Shown: piece by piece, positions 4,279-41,779 of the stretch
Position numbering within the stretch: the stretch's first letter is position 1
Layout of the letters: each line of letters begins with the position of its first letter
Assembly: GCA_964505635.1 (NCBI GenBank)
Contig: CAZDIP010000004.1
Location: 7,198 to 71,197, forward strand
Direction of reading: 5' to 3'
DNA from: an uncultured Candidatus Saccharibacteria bacterium
Lineage (GTDB): Bacteria; Patescibacteriota; Doudnabacteria; UBA920
DNA: 64,000 bases
Notes under the pieces: model-generated
The model's database searches: none
Seen by the model: the letters and a program-made list of their open reading frames with translations, nothing else
Told to the model about the DNA's origin: nothing
Position numbers and translations under genes: made by a program

Positions 4279-4304
4279 CCATTCCGAGCGCAGCGAGGAA
4301 TCCC
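4279..4304. repeat. Family-1 palindromic repeat copy A (ccATTCCGAGCGcaGCGAGGAATccc), intergenic
   Basis: Other copies at 7631-7657 (inside pepP), 36946-36974 (rpsL leader) and 41555-41578 (tuf leader). Confidence 0.8.
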
Positions 4305-4377
4305 TTTATGCAAAGATTTTTGAATATTTTAAGGGATACTTCGCTTCGTTCTGTATGGTTGAGCCAGGTTTTTTGGC

Positions 4378-4406
4378 TTGACTTTTTTGTTGATGTGTGG
4401 TAAATT
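4378..4406 (+). promoter_or_regulatory. Sigma-70-type promoter TTGACT-17-TAAATT
   Basis: -35 at 4378-4383, 17-nt spacer, -10 at 4401-4406, about 80 nt upstream of the small ORF at 4488. Confidence 0.45.
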
Positions 4407-4487
4407 GTATAGTCGGTTTTGTGGCATATCTGCAGTTGCCACGGGATCGATTTGCGTTACGGGGCAAAGGAGGCCCCAATAGATATT

Positions 4488-4670
4488 ATGGACATCAACA
4501 AAATGTTGCAGGATCTGCGCGCGGAGCGCGAGCAGATTGAAGAAGCAATCCTCAGCCTCGAGCGGCTCGCTCGGGGACGTGGAAAGCGCCGGGGCCGGCC
4601 GCCAGTTTGGCTAACGGAAATGCGTAAGGGCGGCGGTAAAGATAACGAAGGCAAAGGAGGGAAAAACTAG
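4488..4670 (+). CDS. Small basic protein (60 aa) with a coiled-coil N-terminus and an AT-hook-like motif (GKRRGRPP); GC-rich island
   Basis: ATG at 4488 preceded by AAGGAGG. Reads MDINKMLQDLRAEREQIEEAILSLERLARGRGKRRGRPPVWLTEMRKGGGKDNEGKGGKN. Own promoter and terminator; local GC well above surroundings. Confidence 0.4.
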   Translation: MDINKMLQDLRAEREQIEEAILSLERLARGRGKRRGRPPVWLTEMRKGGGKDNEGKGGKN

Positions 4671-4803: not shown

Positions 4804-5136
4804 ATGAGCCAAACAAATAATTTTCAGCCAATATTTGATTATATTTACCAAAATAATGCGACTATCGCTAAAGTGGTAGAGGCGCGGTTAGAAGAGAATA
4901 ATGTCGCCTTGGTTAAAGTAATCGAAGAAAGATTTAAACAGAATAACGAAGAATTGTGGGAAAAAATGCAGGAGCATTTTGCTGGCAAGGAAGGTATTCG
5001 CGCTATTAATGACAGATTGGATGGAATTGTAAAACTGGTAAAAAAACTTGATGAAGAAAGGCTTTTTAGCGTGGAGTGGCTAAGAAGGATTGAGGGCGAA
5101 GTTGAAAGAATTAAGAAGCATTTGCAAATTGTATGA
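4804..5136 (+). CDS. Hypothetical coiled-coil protein (110 aa)
   Basis: ORF track; charged helical sequence; stop overlaps the glyQS start (ATGA). Confidence 0.45.
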   Translation: MSQTNNFQPIFDYIYQNNATIAKVVEARLEENNVALVKVIEERFKQNNEELWEKMQEHFAGKEGIRAINDRLDGIVKLVKKLDEERLFSVEWLRRIEGEVERIKKHLQIV

Positions 5137-23396: not shown

Positions 23397-24203
23397 ATGG
23401 AAATATTACAGGCTATAATTTTGGGTTTTGTCCAGGGAGTTGGTGAATTTTTACCAATTTCTTCTTCTGGCCATTTAATTATTACCCACTGGCTCTTTAA
23501 AAAAGATTTGGGTTTAGGTTTTGATGTGGCCTTGCATTGGGGTACGCTTTTAGCAGTGCTGATTTATTTTAAAAATGAGGTCTGGCTTATGGTTAAGGGT
23601 GTTTGGCATAGCCTATTTAAATCCACGCGCGATATTGAAAATAATATTTACCAAAAACTGCCGTGGCTTATTTTAGTAGCCACTGTGCCCGCTGCTGTTA
23701 TAGGAAAATTTTTTGAAAGCAGGGCCCAGACCAGCTTCAGGGATCCTTTGCTGGTGGCCTTGAACTTGGCGGTTTTCGGTCTGGTGATTTATTTTGCCGA
23801 CAGGTTCGGAAAAAAGCAGAAAAATTTAGACAGGATTTTATTTTGGGATGCTTTGTTAATAGGCTTTGCCCAGGCTTTAGCTATTTTACCGGGTGTATCC
23901 CGCAGTGGCGCTACTATGGCCGCTGCTTTGCTTTTAAGCTTTAAGCGTCCCGACGCGGCAAGGTTTTCTTTTTTGATGTCCGCGCCTATAATCTTGGGAG
24001 CCGGCATTTTAGAATCCCCAAGTTTTTTTGCCAGTGGAAATTTTAGCCAAATTATTTTCGGCTTTTTCAGCGCCGGTTTATTCGGTTTTTTAGCCATCAA
24101 GTATTTATTAAAGTTTTTGTCAGCCCATGATTTTAAAATATTTGTTTGGTATAGGTTTTTGGTCGCGGCATTGATTTTGCTTTTATATTTTGCTAAAATC
24201 TAA
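23397..24203 (+). CDS. uppP: Undecaprenyl-diphosphatase
   Basis: BacA/UppP N-terminus ILGFVQGVGEFLPISSSGHLII and PGVSRSGATM motif; 268 aa membrane protein. Confidence 0.9.
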   Translation: MEILQAIILGFVQGVGEFLPISSSGHLIITHWLFKKDLGLGFDVALHWGTLLAVLIYFKNEVWLMVKGVWHSLFKSTRDIENNIYQKLPWLILVATVPAAVIGKFFESRAQTSFRDPLLVALNLAVFGLVIYFADRFGKKQKNLDRILFWDALLIGFAQALAILPGVSRSGATMAAALLLSFKRPDAARFSFLMSAPIILGAGILESPSFFASGNFSQIIFGFFSAGLFGFLAIKYLLKFLSAHDFKIFVWYRFLVAALILLLYFAKI

Positions 24204-24515: not shown

Positions 24516-25541
24516 ATGGATTCTATTGTCAGTCCGCAGTCAAATATAACCATTCAGTCTTTGGATGATTTGCAAAGTCCCATATCTCAGAAAAACCAGA
24601 CTCCTGTCCCGTCAAACGCTCAAACAGTTGCCATAAGCCAGGATGTAAATTATGAGGCGCCTTCTTTGGTCGGCGAGCAAGTTCCTCAGCCCGCGCCGGT
24701 TCTAGAAAATCCGGACAGGGTTTCTTACGCCGACGCGCAAATTCAGGAAATAGAAGTTTCTAAAATTCAGCCCAATCCTTTCCAGCCCAGAAAGGTTTTT
24801 GAGCCTAACGCCTTAAAAGAATTAGCCGACTCCATAAAAGAGCATGGGGTAATTCAGCCTTTGGTAGTTATTAAAACCGAGCTTGGCTATGAAATTGTGG
24901 TCGGGGAAAGGCGTTTTCGGGCTTCTCAGTTAGCCGGAATGGAAAAAGTGCCGGCAATTGTTAAAGACAGCATGGTTGACCAGACCAAGCTAGAGGTGGC
25001 ATTAATAGAAAACATACAGCGCAAAGAGCTAAACCCCATAGAAGAGGCCATGGCTTACGACCGGCTTATGAAGACTTTTCATATGACTCAGGAAGAAGTG
25101 GCTAAAAAAGTCGGTAAAAGCCGTCCGGCAGTGGCTAACACGGTCAGGTTGTTGAATTTGCCTGCGGAAATCCAGCGCGCGGTCATAGAGGGAAAAATTA
25201 TGGAAGGCCATGCCAGGGCGGTTTTAGGGCTCGGGGATACAGAAAAAATGATAGCTTTATACAAGCAGGTGGTGGAAAATGGTTGGAACGTGCGGCAGGT
25301 GGAGCAAAAGGTGAGGGAGTTTACCTTAAAAAAACAAATGGATGCGGCCATGCCGGATCCAAAACTAATGGCTTTGGAAACCGAATTAAGGGTTAAGCTG
25401 GGTACGCAGGTAAAAATTCAAAAGCAGGGGCAAAGCGGCAAAATAACAATAGAATTTTTTAGTGAAGAAGAGTTAAATGACATTGTGAATAAAATGGCCA
25501 GTCAGCAAAATTCTGGCGGCGAAGGTTACTTAACAGTTTGA
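24516..25541 (+). CDS. parB: ParB/Spo0J family chromosome partitioning protein
   Basis: ParB box GERRFRA, HTH region, N-terminal low-complexity extension; 341 aa. Confidence 0.88.
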   Translation: MDSIVSPQSNITIQSLDDLQSPISQKNQTPVPSNAQTVAISQDVNYEAPSLVGEQVPQPAPVLENPDRVSYADAQIQEIEVSKIQPNPFQPRKVFEPNALKELADSIKEHGVIQPLVVIKTELGYEIVVGERRFRASQLAGMEKVPAIVKDSMVDQTKLEVALIENIQRKELNPIEEAMAYDRLMKTFHMTQEEVAKKVGKSRPAVANTVRLLNLPAEIQRAVIEGKIMEGHARAVLGLGDTEKMIALYKQVVENGWNVRQVEQKVREFTLKKQMDAAMPDPKLMALETELRVKLGTQVKIQKQGQSGKITIEFFSEEELNDIVNKMASQQNSGGEGYLTV

Positions 25542-25693
25542 CATATTTCATTTTTTATTTTATAATTTTTTTAATGCGAAGAAAAACTAACAACCAAATT
25601 AATTTCCTACTTAAGGTTTTGGTTAAGCCCGTGCTTTTTACACGCGCAAAGCGGCAGTTTGGTAATTAGTAAGAATGCAAAAGAATTCAAACC

Positions 25694-25720
25694 AAACCCG
25701 CCGTAAGAAGCGGGTTTTTT
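25694..25720 (+). terminator. Rho-independent terminator after parB (aacccgc-cgtaagaa-gcgggtt + TTTTTT)
   Basis: 7-bp stem plus T-run. Confidence 0.7.
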
Positions 25721-25956
25721 AAGGGGTTAGTGCTTGCGGAAATGTAAAAAAGTTTATTTTATATTTTCGCAAGCGCAAGCTTGCAAGGTATGGGTGGTCG
25801 GTTGAGCCCGCGCAGGTTCCCGATAAGAAAATTTCGTTTTCCGAACTCTCCTTTCAGTCGGTCGGTTGTATCATGACCGGGAAACAAGATTTTGAAAACC
25901 ACCCAAAAAGTTTTAGGTCTGCCATGCGGCAGACCATCCACGCAGAGGAGAAAAAG

Positions 25957-26187
25957 ATGGCTGCAGTAGTAGTAGTCGCCCTCAGGCGTCCGCCTGAGGA
26001 AGATAGTTCCCCAGAATTATGCTGGGGGTGCGAGAGTCGTCTTGTTCCGGTAAATACAAAGACTTTTGGCCTCTGTCCGAAATGCCTTTTTGAAGGCTCA
26101 CCTAAGCTTCAAAAGAGTATTTATACAGACCCGGAGTTAGGAGGCCACAGCCTCAGTTGTTTTGGTGGCGACAAAGTTGATAATTAG
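25957..26187 (+). CDS. Possible small zinc-ribbon protein (76 aa; CWGC...CPKC)
   Basis: ATG with GGAGAAAAAG 5' of it; lies in a GC-elevated, otherwise non-coding unit. Could instead be part of a structured RNA. Confidence 0.25.
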   Translation: MAAVVVVALRRPPEEDSSPELCWGCESRLVPVNTKTFGLCPKCLFEGSPKLQKSIYTDPELGGHSLSCFGGDKVDN

Positions 26188-26380
26188 GAGGAGATGGCTA
26201 GCAAGTTTACCAGGCCGCTAGGCTGGAAACTAAAAGGTGAGCGGCAAACCGCAAAAAGCCTTGCTGGCTAAACAATATAAACGGCCATTTTTGGCCGGGC
26301 GGAAAGAAAGTCAGATACCCGACAAACAACTTAGCTTAGTTTGGTTGTTGCAATCATAAAACTTTCACCGCTGTTTGGTA

Positions 26381-26449
26381 GCCCGAGAGTTTTGTTTCGC
26401 GCTTTCGTAAAAAAGAGCGCTTAAACAGAATTCTCGGGCCTGTTTTTTG
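26381..26449 (+). terminator. Large hairpin (cccgagag...ctctcggg with inner gcgct/agcgc stem) followed by TTTTTT
   Basis: Seen directly; closes the 25.73-26.45 kb unit. Confidence 0.5.
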
Positions 26450-26499
26450 CCAAAAGTTTTACTAAATTTAAAGCCGTGAATTTAGTAAACTAAGAATTA

Positions 26500-26528
26500 T
26501 TGAAAAATAAAACCTTTTTTGTTAAAAT
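26500..26528 (+). promoter_or_regulatory. Sigma-70-type promoter TTGAAA-17-TAAAAT upstream of tRNA-Pro
   Basis: -35 26500-26505, -10 26523-26528. Confidence 0.5.
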
Positions 26529-26699
26529 AGTCTAGTTAGCGGGATGTGGCCCTGCTAGTAATTTGCTTACAACAAATACTACGGGGTAAATATAGTGGCA
26601 GCCCGTCTAGTGCCATTTTAATAAACATGCCTTATTGATCGGGCTTGTGGTACGCCGGTAGTACGCGCCCACTTGCTCTGTTAAATTTTTGCCCCTTTG

Positions 26700-26773
26700 C
26701 GGGATGTAGTATAGTGGTAGTACGCGTCCATGGGGTGGATGTAGTCTGGGTTCGATTCCCAGCATCCCGACCA
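26700..26773 (+). tRNA. tRNA-Pro (anticodon GGG), C1:G72 pair, A73, CCA encoded
   Basis: Acceptor cgggatg/catcccg, D-stem gtat/gtac, anticodon stem cgtcc/ggatg with loop auGGGgu, T-arm ctggg-ttcgatt-cccag; 74 nt. Confidence 0.88.
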
Positions 26774-26785
26774 GGAGCAAATAAT

Positions 26786-26930
26786 ATTTAACAGGGTGAA
26801 GGGCGAATATAGATTGGGTTTTATTCCCGGCACCCCGACCAATAACGTATGTGAGAATGGAGCGGGGTAAAATTCCCAATCTAGTCCCGTGGTAATTGCC
26901 AGGCAATTTACTACCGGGGCATCCTAACCA
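26786..26930 (+). pseudogene. Degenerate tRNA 3'-half fragments downstream of tRNA-Pro (T-arm/acceptor/CCA-like copies at ~26833-26850 and ~26908-26928)
   Basis: gggttttattcccggcaccccgacca and ccggggcatcctaaccag resemble the tRNA-Pro 3' end gggttcgattcccagcatcccgacca. Similar 5'-half-like fragments lie upstream at 26540-26690. Confidence 0.5.
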
Positions 26931-26949
26931 GAAAATTATCAAAAACAAA

Positions 26950-27396
26950 ATGCCTGACATAAAAAAAATCGACCAGTCCTTAATTCATTTCTTTCATAAA
27001 TACAGTGGAGCGTTTGCCCGTATTTCCCTGTTTGTCGTTTATTTTTGGTTTGGGATTTTAAAAATTTTAGACACCAGTCCTGCCAATCCTTTGGTGGCTT
27101 CTTTGCTTGAGCAGACCTTGCCTTTTTTAACTTTCCGTTCTTTCATTGTATTTTTTAGTTTGTATGAAATGCTTATCGGCATTTTGTTTTTGTTTCCAAA
27201 ATCGGACAGATTAACTTTTATTTTGTTTGCCGCTCATATGCTGACAACTTTTTTGCCCCTGGTTTTTTTGCCCGCCAATACCTGGCAAAGTTTTATGGTA
27301 CCAACTTTAGAAGGCCAGTATATTATAAAAAATTTGGTGTTAATTGGTTTGGCTATGGCTATTGCGGGTAATTTGCGTCCCTTGTCAAAAAAATAA
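26950..27396 (+). CDS. Small polytopic membrane protein (~149 aa from the ATG at 26950; DUF417/YkgB-like guess)
   Basis: Four hydrophobic helices. Start moved to the internal ATG because the upstream part of the track ORF overlaps tRNA debris. Confidence 0.5.
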   Translation: MPDIKKIDQSLIHFFHKYSGAFARISLFVVYFWFGILKILDTSPANPLVASLLEQTLPFLTFRSFIVFFSLYEMLIGILFLFPKSDRLTFILFAAHMLTTFLPLVFLPANTWQSFMVPTLEGQYIIKNLVLIGLAMAIAGNLRPLSKK

Positions 27397-34791: not shown

Positions 34792-36687
34792 TTGGCCGAA
34801 AAAAAAATTAAACATATGGGATTACACGACAAGTTTATGCAAAAAGATGGGCCTTATGCCAAATGGCACAGGCACCCGATGCACAAAATTGGCCAGTGGG
34901 CTTTACTGCTTTTAGTGGTTGGTAGCGTGGGGTATTTATTGGTAAACAGGACCAATGACCCTTATGCTGAAAATTATGGCCTGAATTCAAAGGCCTCCAA
35001 CCAAGGGCAGGATGGCCCGCCTAATTTATTTAAAGGAGAGACATTTTTTAAGGAAAGCGGTAAATACGGCCTAGAAGCTGAAGAAGACGATGTAAATACG
35101 GATTTAATTGAAAGAGGTACGGATAAAATGAAAATTAAGCTACCCGGGGAACGAAATATTGTGGTCAGCAAAAAGAAGTTTGAAAAACGCGGTATGGGTG
35201 ACGCTGTATGGCATGGTGAGGTAGAGGGAAGGAGCGATTCCAGCGTTTCTATTACTTTAAAAAATGGTTTTGTGGCGGGAGCAATAAATATTGGCGGGGA
35301 ATTATATGAAATAAGGCCGGGACAGGGCACAAAGCATACTGTTGAAAAAATGGATTCAACTGCTTTTCCGCCTGAGTCCGATGTTCATTTAGCCACAGCT
35401 GATGATACTTTGAGCCAGGACGCGCTTACAGGTTCTGGCGCTGTGTTAAATGAAGGGGTTGTGCAAATTGACTTGCTTTCTGTTTATACACCGCAGGCCA
35501 GGACTGCGGCAGGCGGGGTCGCACAGATTGACTCACTAATCCAGGCTGCGGTAGACAGGGCTAATCTTTCTTTTACCAACAGCCAGGTTAACGCGCATTA
35601 TAATTTAGTTGCTACGGCCGAAGTTGCTTATAATGATTCTGGAACAACCTCAACTGATTTATATTGGCTTCGTTCTGATGCCAATGTGGCTAGCCTTAGA
35701 AACCAATACGGCGCTGATATGGTTTCCATGATGGTGTCAAATGGCGGCAGCGCTTGTGGAACTGGGTTTTTGTATACGGCTTCCGCATCTTCCGCTTTCC
35801 AGGTTACTGACATGGATTGTGCGGTTGGTAATTTAACCTTTGCACACGAACACGGGCATAATCTTGGTATGGGGCATGATCCTTCAACTACAAACCAAGG
35901 TATTTATTCATACTCCTGGGGACATGGAGTTAACGGTGTTTTTCGAACGGTAATGGCATACGCTTCTGCTTGCTCTTCAGGCTGTACCCGTTTGCCCTAT
36001 TTTTCTAATCCAAATGTAATGTATTCGGGGTATGCTACAGGTATTGCTGACCAAAGGGATCATGCCAGAACCGCAAACCAGACTGTTGCAACGGTTGCCG
36101 GTTTTAGAAGCGCTCCGGGCAGTACAAATATACCAGCTTCGCCAAGTTCTCTTTCTGCTTCTGCAGTCTCAACATCCCAAATTAAATTAACCTGGACTGA
36201 TAATGCTGTTGACGAGCTGGGTTTTAAAGTCCAGCGCTCGTTAGACGGCGCTAATTTTACCCAAATCGCAGATATTGGCACGAACGTAACAAGTTATACT
36301 AATTCGGGACTTGCCGCCAATACAACTTATTACTACAGAATTCTTGCTTATAATAGCGCCGGAGACTCAGGTTCAAGTAATATAGCTAATGCCACGACTT
36401 TTATTGCAGACATTCAAGCTCCTTCAGTCAGCATAACCAGCCCAGTTGACGGCGCTAAAATTAGCGGCAGCAGAGTGGAAATAGCTGCCACAGCCAGCGA
36501 CAACGTGGGAGTTACCAGCGTGCAATTTTATATAGACGGTAAAGCCAGCGGGTCCGACACCTCGGCTTCTTATACTTACCGCTGGAATGTAAATAGAAAA
36601 GTTGCTAACGGCAGTCATACCATAATGGCCAGAGCCTATGATGCGGCGGGTAATAGTTCAACCTCCAGCATTACGGTTACAAAGTAA
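34792..36687 (+). CDS. Secreted/membrane-anchored metzincin metalloprotease (HEHGHNLGMGHD; reprolysin/M12B-like) with C-terminal fibronectin-III and Ig-like (Big) domains
   Basis: HExxHxxGxxHD zinc motif, N-terminal TM/signal, FN3-like SASAVSTSQIKLTWTD...YYYRILAYN, Big-like C-terminus; 631 aa. Confidence 0.75.
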   Translation: MAEKKIKHMGLHDKFMQKDGPYAKWHRHPMHKIGQWALLLLVVGSVGYLLVNRTNDPYAENYGLNSKASNQGQDGPPNLFKGETFFKESGKYGLEAEEDDVNTDLIERGTDKMKIKLPGERNIVVSKKKFEKRGMGDAVWHGEVEGRSDSSVSITLKNGFVAGAINIGGELYEIRPGQGTKHTVEKMDSTAFPPESDVHLATADDTLSQDALTGSGAVLNEGVVQIDLLSVYTPQARTAAGGVAQIDSLIQAAVDRANLSFTNSQVNAHYNLVATAEVAYNDSGTTSTDLYWLRSDANVASLRNQYGADMVSMMVSNGGSACGTGFLYTASASSAFQVTDMDCAVGNLTFAHEHGHNLGMGHDPSTTNQGIYSYSWGHGVNGVFRTVMAYASACSSGCTRLPYFSNPNVMYSGYATGIADQRDHARTANQTVATVAGFRSAPGSTNIPASPSSLSASAVSTSQIKLTWTDNAVDELGFKVQRSLDGANFTQIADIGTNVTSYTNSGLAANTTYYYRILAYNSAGDSGSSNIANATTFIADIQAPSVSITSPVDGAKISGSRVEIAATASDNVGVTSVQFYIDGKASGSDTSASYTYRWNVNRKVANGSHTIMARAYDAAGNSSTSSITVTK

Positions 36688-36703
36688 GTTAAGATAAACT
36701 TAA

Positions 36704-36738
36704 GAGACTCTTCTGCCAGGGGCAGAAGAGTCTCTTTT
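36704..36738 (+). terminator. Rho-independent terminator (agagactcttctgcc-aggg-gcagaagagtctct + TTTT)
   Basis: Perfect 15-bp stem. Confidence 0.85.
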
Positions 36739-36945
36739 GCTAGTTTGACATTTTAGCTCTAGTTGGGTAAAATAAGAATAATTGAATAAGAAACCCCCCG
36801 CCCAGGCGGGGAATTACTCAATTTGTCGATGTGTTTGAGAAGTTAATCCTAAAGGTTTCAGGATAGTATCGAACGCACGAAGTAGCAAAAATCCAAAGTT
36901 TTGCGCGTGGATTTTTTTGTTGCTTGGAATAATAATTTAAGTAGT

Positions 36946-36974
36946 CACCATTCCGAACGTAAGTGAGGAATTCC
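36946..36974. repeat. Family-1 repeat copy C (degenerate) in the rpsL upstream region
   Basis: caccattccgaacgtaagtgaggaattcc. Confidence 0.6.
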
Positions 36975-41535: not shown

Positions 41536-41554
41536 TTTTTTGCAACTTCCGGCG

Positions 41555-41578
41555 TCATTCCGAGCGTGGCGAGGAATC
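41555..41578. repeat. Family-1 repeat copy D in the tuf 5' leader
   Basis: tcattccgagcgtggcgaggaatc. Confidence 0.8.
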
Positions 41579-41779
41579 TACTAAATATGATCTGATTTTT
41601 GACTTCGTTTGGGATGATGCCGAAAGACTGAGTTAATAAAACTAATAAATTAATCGTAGCCCTGGATTCCGAAAGGATAGAAAGAGAAAAACCCTTGGCT
41701 TTGCGCCGATCGATAGGCGCGGGGTTAAGGGTTTCTCGGGCGAAATTCCGCCTCTGGCGGGATAAGAAAGGTAAAATAA

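Follow-up and report, generated by a model that had tools for sequence, protein, structure and literature searches.

The question raised by this locus is what is made from the gap between parB and tRNA-Pro(ggg) in a bacterium of the Candidatus Doudnabacteria. The gap (1158 bp) lies in a stretch of 64,000 nucleotides, hereafter the window, in which all coordinates are counted. In an earlier note on this DNA, positions 25725-26455 were described as a GC-rich, hairpin-rich unit running from a possible promoter to a large terminator without any convincing coding sequence (CDS), and a structured non-coding RNA (ncRNA), perhaps one of the housekeeping RNAs encoded by rnpB, ssrA, ffs and ssrS, was proposed. 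Our analysis suggested a different answer. The interval 25725-26455 is most likely the highly folded mRNA of a species-specific 76-residue zinc-ribbon protein, and the actual cis-regulatory RNA appears, from comparison with related loci, to be located just upstream of it, at 25574-25720. On balance, from an analysis that was computational throughout, we lean towards a model in which 25538-26449 would be a single plus-strand operon, with an attenuator gating a hypervariable small-protein cargo.

The Candidate Phyla Radiation (CPR), or Patescibacteria, consists of uncultivated episymbionts with reduced genomes, in which gene regulation and many orphan small proteins are nearly uncharted. The window comes from a CPR bacterium, has a low GC content (40.5%) and carries every long open reading frame (ORF) on the plus strand. 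Relatives of its parB at 60-82% amino-acid identity were found in metagenome-assembled genomes labelled Candidatus Doudnabacteria or Patescibacteria, and scans of genome and metagenome contigs with parB revealed no relative above about 82%. The comparison set consisted of 35 related Candidatus Doudnabacteria loci, with 27 parB-to-tRNA-Pro gaps amounting to 37 kb. The order tRNA-Leu, parB, tRNA-Pro was kept among these relatives, the parB-to-tRNA-Pro gap was between 12 bp and 2.5 kb long, and tRNA-Pro flipped its orientation between species. The sole other contig bearing the gap sequence and its zinc-ribbon ORF, L023, was 100% identical to the window.

Folding and family searches of 25725-26455

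The housekeeping RNA proposal was refuted by the sequence searches. None of rnpB, ssrA, ffs and ssrS was matched on either strand of 25500-26720 in an Rfam scan at E<=10, which gave only noise and nothing credible; its best sub-threshold matches were amino-acid operon leaders on 25569-25723, far under threshold. At the gathering thresholds, only two tRNAs were detected in the whole window, and only tRNAs plus one LOOT RNA in 17 related loci. No transfer-messenger RNA (tmRNA) was found by ARAGORN. When 25725-26455 was compared with the 35 related loci by blastn, nhmmer and tblastn, no homologue was obtained, and the extended interval 25725-26700 matched only the identical contig L023 by blastn and nhmmer. 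RNase P RNA, tmRNA, signal recognition particle (SRP) RNA and 6S RNA share with this interval the promoter-to-terminator layout, the intergenic site and the high predicted structure; they differ from it in that no covariance model matched up to E = 10, and in that they are universally conserved, whereas the sequence of the window is not kept in the relatives.

The earlier note was right about the unusual RNA structure. The plus strand of 25725-26455 folded at -281.6 kcal/mol versus -215.9 kcal/mol in shuffles (z = -10.7), the minus strand gave z = -7.2, and the parB CDS gave z = +0.4. Much of the signal was supplied by the end hairpins (z = -10 for 25725-25780 and -7.9 for 26376-26455). The interior, 25777-26380, reached z = -5.9, or -5.1 in a second run, which was the lowest value among 41 windows of 604 nt; the other 40 had a mean of -0.81 (sd 1.31) and a minimum of -4.16. 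The hairpins named in the earlier note do exist, with several coordinates displaced by 5-9 nt. The perfect 8-bp hairpin ggtctgcc-atgc-ggcagacc is present, at 25916-25935 instead of 25921-25940. The long-range pairing gggtggt/accaccc occurs in the minimum-free-energy fold, at 25792-25798 and 25898-25904, 5-9 nt from the sites given for it, and this domain taken alone was not significant (z = -1.3). The GC content of 46.5% corresponds to the 94th percentile of 731-nt windows, but equals that of nearby coding DNA such as parB.

A recurrent zinc-ribbon ORF

The only ORF with a plausible ribosome-binding site in the interval, a CxxC…CxxC frame at 25957-26187, had been recorded in the earlier note, and it is present with a Shine-Dalgarno sequence GAGGAG at 25945-25950, 6 nt before the ATG and unpaired in the predicted fold. 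Its two CxxC knuckles are separated by 14 residues (CxxC-x14-CxxC), which constitutes the full zinc-ribbon signature. The claim that the unit holds no convincing CDS was contradicted by the relatives, in which zinc-ribbon ORFs form a positionally recurrent class. In the 27 gaps, CxxC-x(6-30)-CxxC was carried by 17 plus-strand ORFs with a length of 30 aa or more and by none on the minus strand, and only 0.18 were expected from dinucleotide shuffles of the same gaps. When a Shine-Dalgarno sequence and a start codon were also required, 12 of the 17 were retained, versus 0.00 in the shuffles. The decisive evidence is positional: because CxxC ORFs recur in relatives with position and strand unchanged, the ORF of the window is very probably a real gene, as far as sequence comparison can tell.

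The ORFs of the window, L005, L008, L014 and L029 have C..C[LV]x[EN]G.P in common, and the four cysteines were invariant in the alignment of these five sequences. With a leave-one-out profile made from the other four, the window ORF ranked first of 1818 six-frame segments, weakly, at E = 0.029. Sub-threshold matches to several zinc-ribbon families were obtained with the ORFs of the relatives. For the 76-aa ORF itself, Pfam gave no family at E<=1 and PHROGs gave none; a k-mer/HMMER search of 5.8 billion proteins returned the query only, and a profile of the five positional analogues returned only its own members from the protein databases. The protein resembles small stand-alone zinc-ribbon proteins of the Pfam clan (e.g. 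DZR PF12773, Zn_Ribbon_TF PF08271 and HVO_2753-like PF07754) in having two CxxC knuckles in fewer than 100 residues, and differs from them in falling under every family threshold, in lacking a confidently predicted fold and in having no homologue outside four species. The 76-aa ORF is already called as a gene in an NCBI record (P0001); what is new here is the regulatory unit beside it and the hypervariable cargo behind a conserved leader.

An N-terminal extension to 104 aa from 25873 was rejected, as it has no Shine-Dalgarno sequence. A second ORF in 26188-26380 was likewise rejected; only a 25-codon frame is present, with a Shine-Dalgarno sequence 2 nt from its ATG. Perfect hairpins occur inside the 76-aa ORF at 25980-25999 and 26009-26027. 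A partial match to RAGATH-16 at 26009-26035, below threshold with 22 versus 65.6 bits, fell on a perfect 6-bp hairpin inside the ORF and was judged to be due to chance. The large terminator that the earlier note had placed at 26381-26449 was confirmed as a long hairpin with a U-run; its tail, cctgttttttgccaaaag, is similar to those of the terminators in L008 and L014. The earlier note had itself named the lack of an Rfam hit and conservation evidence for the zinc-ribbon ORF as findings that speak against an ncRNA; the former was obtained outright, and the latter in large part, as an ORF class recurring at the same position.

An attenuator-like unit directly downstream of parB

The hairpin at 25694-25720 had been taken for the terminator of parB. 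A terminator-like hairpin with a U-run does exist there, but it ends a separate unit with its own promoter and small ORF. The promoter (Table 1) was the only strong plus-strand promoter site in 25300-27000, and the expected transcription start, about 25573-25574, coincides with the ATG of the small ORF. In relatives, TTGAC[AGT]-17-TATxxT was found 6-18 nt before an invariant ATG. The ATG-initiated frame was open for 24-34 codons in 20/20 species, while the other two frames closed after 5.6 and 10.4 codons on average, and the gaps in the small-ORF alignment were multiples of three, i.e. in-frame indels. The peptide motif PVLFT[KR]A was common to the window and L001. Asn made up 17% of leader residues 2-12 versus a background of 4.5%, a 3.8-fold excess (N6, N7 and N10 in the window). 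A type I toxin was considered for the 31-aa peptide and rejected; an invariant Lys in the hydrophobic stretch does not fit a transmembrane helix.

A profile of about 170 nt was built from five relatives and searched against the 27 gaps. By nhmmer, the unit was present as one copy in 23 of them including the window, always directly downstream of parB, and 25657-25728 of the window aligned to the relatives' model at E = 7.9e-4. The strict terminator pattern was found in 16/21 species, and a less regular stem with a U-run was visible in the remaining five. When transcripts were cut before the 3' arm of the terminator, the 5' arm paired with region 2, a segment beside the leader stop codon, in most species. 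The strands of this region 2:3 helix are GGCTAAGGT/ACCCTAGCC in L012, GGCTCAGGGT/ACCCTAAGCC in L010, GGGGTAGT/ACTGCCCCA in L030 and GCGGcaGTTTGGT/ACCAAACCCGC in the window, where the duplex of region 2 and 25690-25701 has an energy of -14.5 to -15.5 kcal/mol and the helix was also predicted by strand folding.

The pairings were evaluated by alignment-free duplex permutation tests in place of RNAalifold. The region 2:3 duplex had a mean of -14.9 kcal/mol within species versus -11.5 across species (15 species), and none of 20000 derangements was as good. For the duplex of region 2 with region 1, a segment further upstream inside the ORF, the means were -17.5 and -14.4 kcal/mol, again with 0/20000 derangements as good; a consensus region 1:2 stem with some compensatory pairs was weakly indicated by RNAalifold. 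At least 6 nt of the terminator 5' arm are taken up by the 2:3 helix, which on average matches the terminator in strength (-14.9 versus -12.9 kcal/mol) and covaries with it; the two structures are mutually exclusive. Measured from the 3' end of region 2, the leader stop codon started at -11 to +9 nt (median -1) in 15/15 species, the value for the window being +3. The computation directly shows the elements, the extent to which they are conserved, and that the alternative pairings covary. Judged by its sequence, 25538-25720 is built like a trp-type ribosome-mediated attenuator whose leader peptide is putatively leaderless.

Hairpin H1 behind the terminator

In the earlier note, a possible promoter was placed at about 25733-25770. 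This stretch is instead a 20-bp RNA stem-loop, here called H1. No sigma-70-like site was called on the plus strand between 25567 and 26499, and the scan gave no other promoter-like site before the zinc-ribbon ORF. The G-U pairs of H1 would be A-C mismatches on the opposite strand. In nearly every relative, a hairpin of 14-24 bp and of unrelated sequence follows the preceding terminator within about 110 nt. A hairpin of at least 14 bp at the H1 position was found in 15/23 species versus 8% of shuffles, and the plus-strand hairpin was stabler than the minus-strand one in 19/22 species in an unbiased local-fold comparison (p = 0.0012). H1 is kept as a structure in relatives. These results indicated that H1 acts as an RNA element on the plus strand, of which the position and not the sequence appears to be conserved. 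As H1 begins only 9 nt past the U-run, whole H1 RNA could exist only in read-through transcripts.

A parS site was rejected for H1, which contains no TGTTTCACGTGAAACA-like sequence. Integron attC-like hairpins were rejected too: the RYYYAAC/GTTRRRY ends are missing, the hairpins are stabler on the coding strand, and no integrase was seen.

Proposed operon and alternative explanations

A single operon is the simplest model that covers all parts. Transcription would proceed from the perfect sigma-70 promoter, with its start at or beside the AUG of the 31-codon leader ORF. Where region 2 (25650-25664) pairs with region 3 (25690-25701), the terminator 5' arm (25696-25715) would be sequestered and the polymerase would read on. 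Where a ribosome at the stop codon covers region 2, or region 1 holds region 2, the terminator would form, by analogy with trp-type attenuators, and a leader RNA of about 147 nt would be released. The read-through RNA would comprise H1, the 180-nt folded leader with its exposed Shine-Dalgarno sequence, the 76-aa ORF, the folded 3' untranslated region (UTR) and the strong terminator, with both end hairpins probably protecting or processing the mRNA. The zinc-ribbon protein, presumably translated like the leader peptide, appears from its position to be one of the fast-turning-over small proteins, often zinc ribbons, that occupy the slot between parB and tRNA-Pro. Our working guess is a small nucleic-acid- or protein-binding zinc ribbon that would be expressed when leader translation stalls.

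Several results weigh against this model. In the window, the 2:3 helix (-15.5 kcal/mol) outweighs the terminator (-9.6 kcal/mol) and persists in the full-length minimum-free-energy fold, where the terminator hairpin is not preferred; region 1 of the window prefers a partner other than region 2. The leader copy of the window is the most divergent one, its E = 7.9e-4 holds only versus a small gap database, it was not detected in a whole-window search, and its fold is unremarkable (z = -1.1 to -2.2). The leader ORF has no run of one regulatory codon, and in several relatives the small ORF is preceded by a leader of 10-20 nt that lacks a Shine-Dalgarno sequence. RNAalifold gave an empty consensus on the 20-sequence MAFFT leader alignment and weak covariation (-0.98) on 8 close sequences. 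As for the zinc-ribbon ORF, a full HMMER search of 1.84 billion representatives found only itself and no homologue, and its profile match to the relatives is weak. The AlphaFold2 model had a predicted local distance difference test (pLDDT) score of 58 and a predicted template modelling (pTM) score of 0.34, which is unreliable and too low for a fold search. The codon-usage score of 0.080 did not stand out from the scores of antisense open frames (mean 0.012, sd 0.147) and was under that of most real small genes of the window; the genuine zinc-ribbon S14 gene scored -0.06 and was likewise inseparable from antisense frames, and the codon-usage log-odds were uninformative here.

The same parts could also be read as two unrelated small genes, 25538-25720 making its own 31-aa micro-protein or a small RNA of about 147 nt, and the zinc-ribbon gene being served by a weak promoter in or near H1. 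This we consider unlikely. The small ORF is indeed kept as a frame of peptide length, action in trans is reported elsewhere for released attenuator RNAs and leader peptides (PMC6614838, PMC7298713), and a weak promoter in H1 is conceivable, which also counts against the single operon: H1 contains a -35-like TTGCGG, with TATTTT or TATATT as its -10-like partner, and TTGAC-like hexamers occur in the H1 5' arm of several relatives. The hexamers of the window, however, are spaced by 15 or 20 nt and the promoter scan called none, and H1 behaves as a plus-strand RNA hairpin that is whole only by read-through. The 2:3 complementarity, which would here be mere folding of a small transcript, excludes the terminator and covaries with it, and the stop codon keeps its place relative to region 2. 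A stand-alone, lineage-specific structured ncRNA at 25725-26455 with a fortuitous 76-codon frame was judged improbable. The structure excess (about -5 to -6 in the interior, lowest of the 41 windows, besides the z of the whole), the perfect hairpins inside the ORF, the orphan status of the ORF and a codon usage that lends coding no support would suit it. Yet there is no Rfam family even at E<=10 and no homologous RNA in any relative; a spaced Shine-Dalgarno sequence, an ATG and the full zinc-ribbon signature would arise by chance with p < 0.01 per gap, and like ORFs stand at the same position and strand in at least 12 relatives with unrelated nucleotide sequence.

Equally little probability was given to non-functional debris, such as a decaying mobile-element fragment at a recombination or integration hot spot, in spite of the variable gap length, the changing orientation of tRNA-Pro, a cargo that is unalignable even at 84-87% parB identity, and the degenerate fragments of tRNA-Pro found at 26540-26680 and 26823-26841. 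Neither an integrase nor any other gene of a mobile element was seen and no similarity to phage or plasmid records was found, whereas the ORF is intact with its Shine-Dalgarno sequence and the cysteine ligands are kept between L008 and L014 despite 42-47% nucleotide identity. The elements that frame the cargo, namely promoter, attenuator, H1 and strong terminator, have all been kept, and the RNA structure excess speaks for selection. Weighed together, the single operon with an attenuator in front of the zinc-ribbon gene is the reading we prefer.

Comparison with known regulatory systems

The unit resembles trpL, hisL, leuL, thrL and pheL (RF00513, RF00512, RF00506, RF01859) in that the transcript begins with a short ORF, which an intrinsic terminator follows. 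As in trp-type attenuators, a segment beside the leader stop codon competes for the terminator 5' arm; a further-upstream segment inside the ORF may hold the competitor, as judged from the comparison across species. The differences are that the leader here is longer (24-35 codons), with an Asn excess but without a single-codon run; that the cargo consists of hypervariable small zinc-ribbon or other proteins and not of amino-acid biosynthesis or tRNA-synthetase genes; that a conserved long hairpin, H1, follows the terminator; and that the host is a CPR bacterium. The architecture is similar to that of the Rfam leader families, but the unit is not a member of them: it scored under gathering for Trp_leader (24.6 versus 41 bits), Phe (18.9 versus 55), Leu (16.8 versus 50) and Thr (16.8 versus 55). 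Leaderless leader peptides in attenuators have been predicted in Deinococcus deserti (PMC4007540), and the unit, with an AUG predicted to lie at or near its transcription start, resembles them in this. Full-text searches of the literature turned up no attenuator reported for CPR/Patescibacteria, and nothing on RNA regulation in Doudnabacteria.

Stem-loops at or near the 5' end stabilise mRNA in the ompA leader and in the B. subtilis aprE and ermC leaders. The small mRNA here is similarly bracketed by near-perfect stems of about 20 bp (5') and about 24 bp (3'), as in mRNA stabilisers and RNase III-type hairpins. H1 differs in not being at a mapped 5' end, and its role in stabilisation, processing or protein binding is putative.

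Turnover of the cargo

Between L008 and L014, the zinc-ribbon ORFs showed 42-47% nucleotide identity and 21-40% amino-acid identity with the cysteines kept, while parB showed 76% and the flanking non-coding blocks 74-84% nucleotide identity. In other species pairs with 84-87% parB nucleotide identity, the cargo after the attenuator and H1 was not alignable, being either replaced or saturated with changes (gaps of L001-L036). These comparisons suggested a much quicker turnover for the cargo than for its regulatory RNA or for housekeeping genes.

Degenerate copies of the 5' half of tRNA-Pro (cgggatgt, tatagtgg, ggtagtacgcg) were observed at 26540-26680, upstream of the real gene, and a 17/19-nt copy of its 3' end at 26823-26841, 50 nt downstream of it. 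The neighbourhood does rearrange, as these degenerate fragments indicate, and they are possibly scars of rearrangement or integration at tRNA-Pro. The segment 26519-26672 resembles the 5' flank of tRNA-Pro in L005 (E = 0.0014). Searches of phage and plasmid records gave no similarity.

Features of the locus and other structured elements

The coordinates of the features are collected in Table 1.

Table 1. Features of the parB to tRNA-Pro locus and its neighbours, in window coordinates; z-values refer to folding
Feature	Position	Strand	Remarks
BacA gene	23397-24203	+	
tRNA-Leu(caa)			between BacA and parB
parB	24516-25541	+	
Predicted sigma-70-type promoter, TTGACA-17-TATAAT	25538-25566	+	overlaps parB stop; 12/12 consensus positions
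Leader ORF, 31 codons, putatively leaderless, MRRKTNNQINFLLKVLVKPVLFTRAKRQFGN	25574-25669	+	stop TAG 25667-25669
Region 2, agcggcagtttggta, putative antiterminator 5' strand	25650-25664	+	ends 3 nt before leader stop codon
Region 3, aaccaaacccgc, terminator 5' arm and flank	25690-25701	+	predicted to pair with region 2 or region 4
Predicted attenuator terminator	25696-25720	+	stem acccgc/gcgggt, 8-nt loop, U-run to 25720; weak, -9.6 kcal/mol
H1, 20-bp RNA stem-loop with 3 G-U pairs	25730-25776	+	9 nt after terminator U-run; z = -10
Structured 180-nt 5' leader of zinc-ribbon gene	25777-25956	+	helix 25792-25798/25898-25904, hairpin 25916-25935; z = -3.2
Orphan zinc-ribbon ORF, 76 aa	25957-26187	+	C22-x2-C25, C40-x2-C43, then LFEGSP
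Structured 3' UTR	26188-26380	+	z = -2.8; only a 25-codon ORF, 26194-26271
Strong intrinsic terminator, end of unit	26381-26449	+	stem 26381-26439, U-run 26443-26448; -39 kcal/mol, z = -7.9
tRNA-Pro(ggg)	26700-26773		
DoxX-like gene, then Maf			after tRNA-Pro

For the 5' leader at 25777-25956, no homologue was found in the relatives. Elsewhere in the window, an intergenic hairpin motif ATTCCGAGCG-NNN-GCGAGGAAT was repeated at 4281-4301 and 41557-41577, with a variant at about 36950-36974 upstream of rpsL; the two exact sites sit in strongly structured 150-nt windows (z = -7.0 for 4351-4500 and -5.6 for 41551-41700). A very long perfect terminator hairpin (aagagactcttctgcc...ggcagaagagtctctttt) was located at 36690-36740, after a gene ending at 36687, and the 150-nt window holding it had the lowest z of the scan, -8.0. 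The LOOT RNA (RF03000) mentioned above was found at 4961-5090 on the minus strand of L016, about 2.2 kb downstream of parB, with 61.3 bits versus a gathering threshold of 46.4, and has no counterpart in the window.

Implications

For annotation, the combination of very strong predicted RNA folding and an orphan ORF with unusual codon usage was insufficient for an ncRNA call, and comparison at the level of synteny recovered both the zinc-ribbon ORF and the adjoining regulatory RNA. More tentatively, and with less confidence than the operon itself, a clade-specific leaderless Asn-rich attenuator after parB may gate a replaceable cassette across the Doudnabacteria, which would couple translational stress, for example when charged tRNA taken from the host runs short, to arms-race or host-interaction factors. 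In this reading, the terminated leader RNA of about 147 nt, or its peptide, might also have effects in trans, in the manner of rnTrpL and peTrpL of Sinorhizobium. If true, no ribosome-mediated attenuator would have been described in the CPR before this one. If the model holds, it would provide a concrete class of cis-regulatory RNA in the CPR, with termination at 25720 versus read-through as the read-out and about 20 natural variants; the small hypervariable protein cassette would be flagged for roles in host interaction or stress response, and coupled transcription-translation control would operate in CPR/Patescibacteria.

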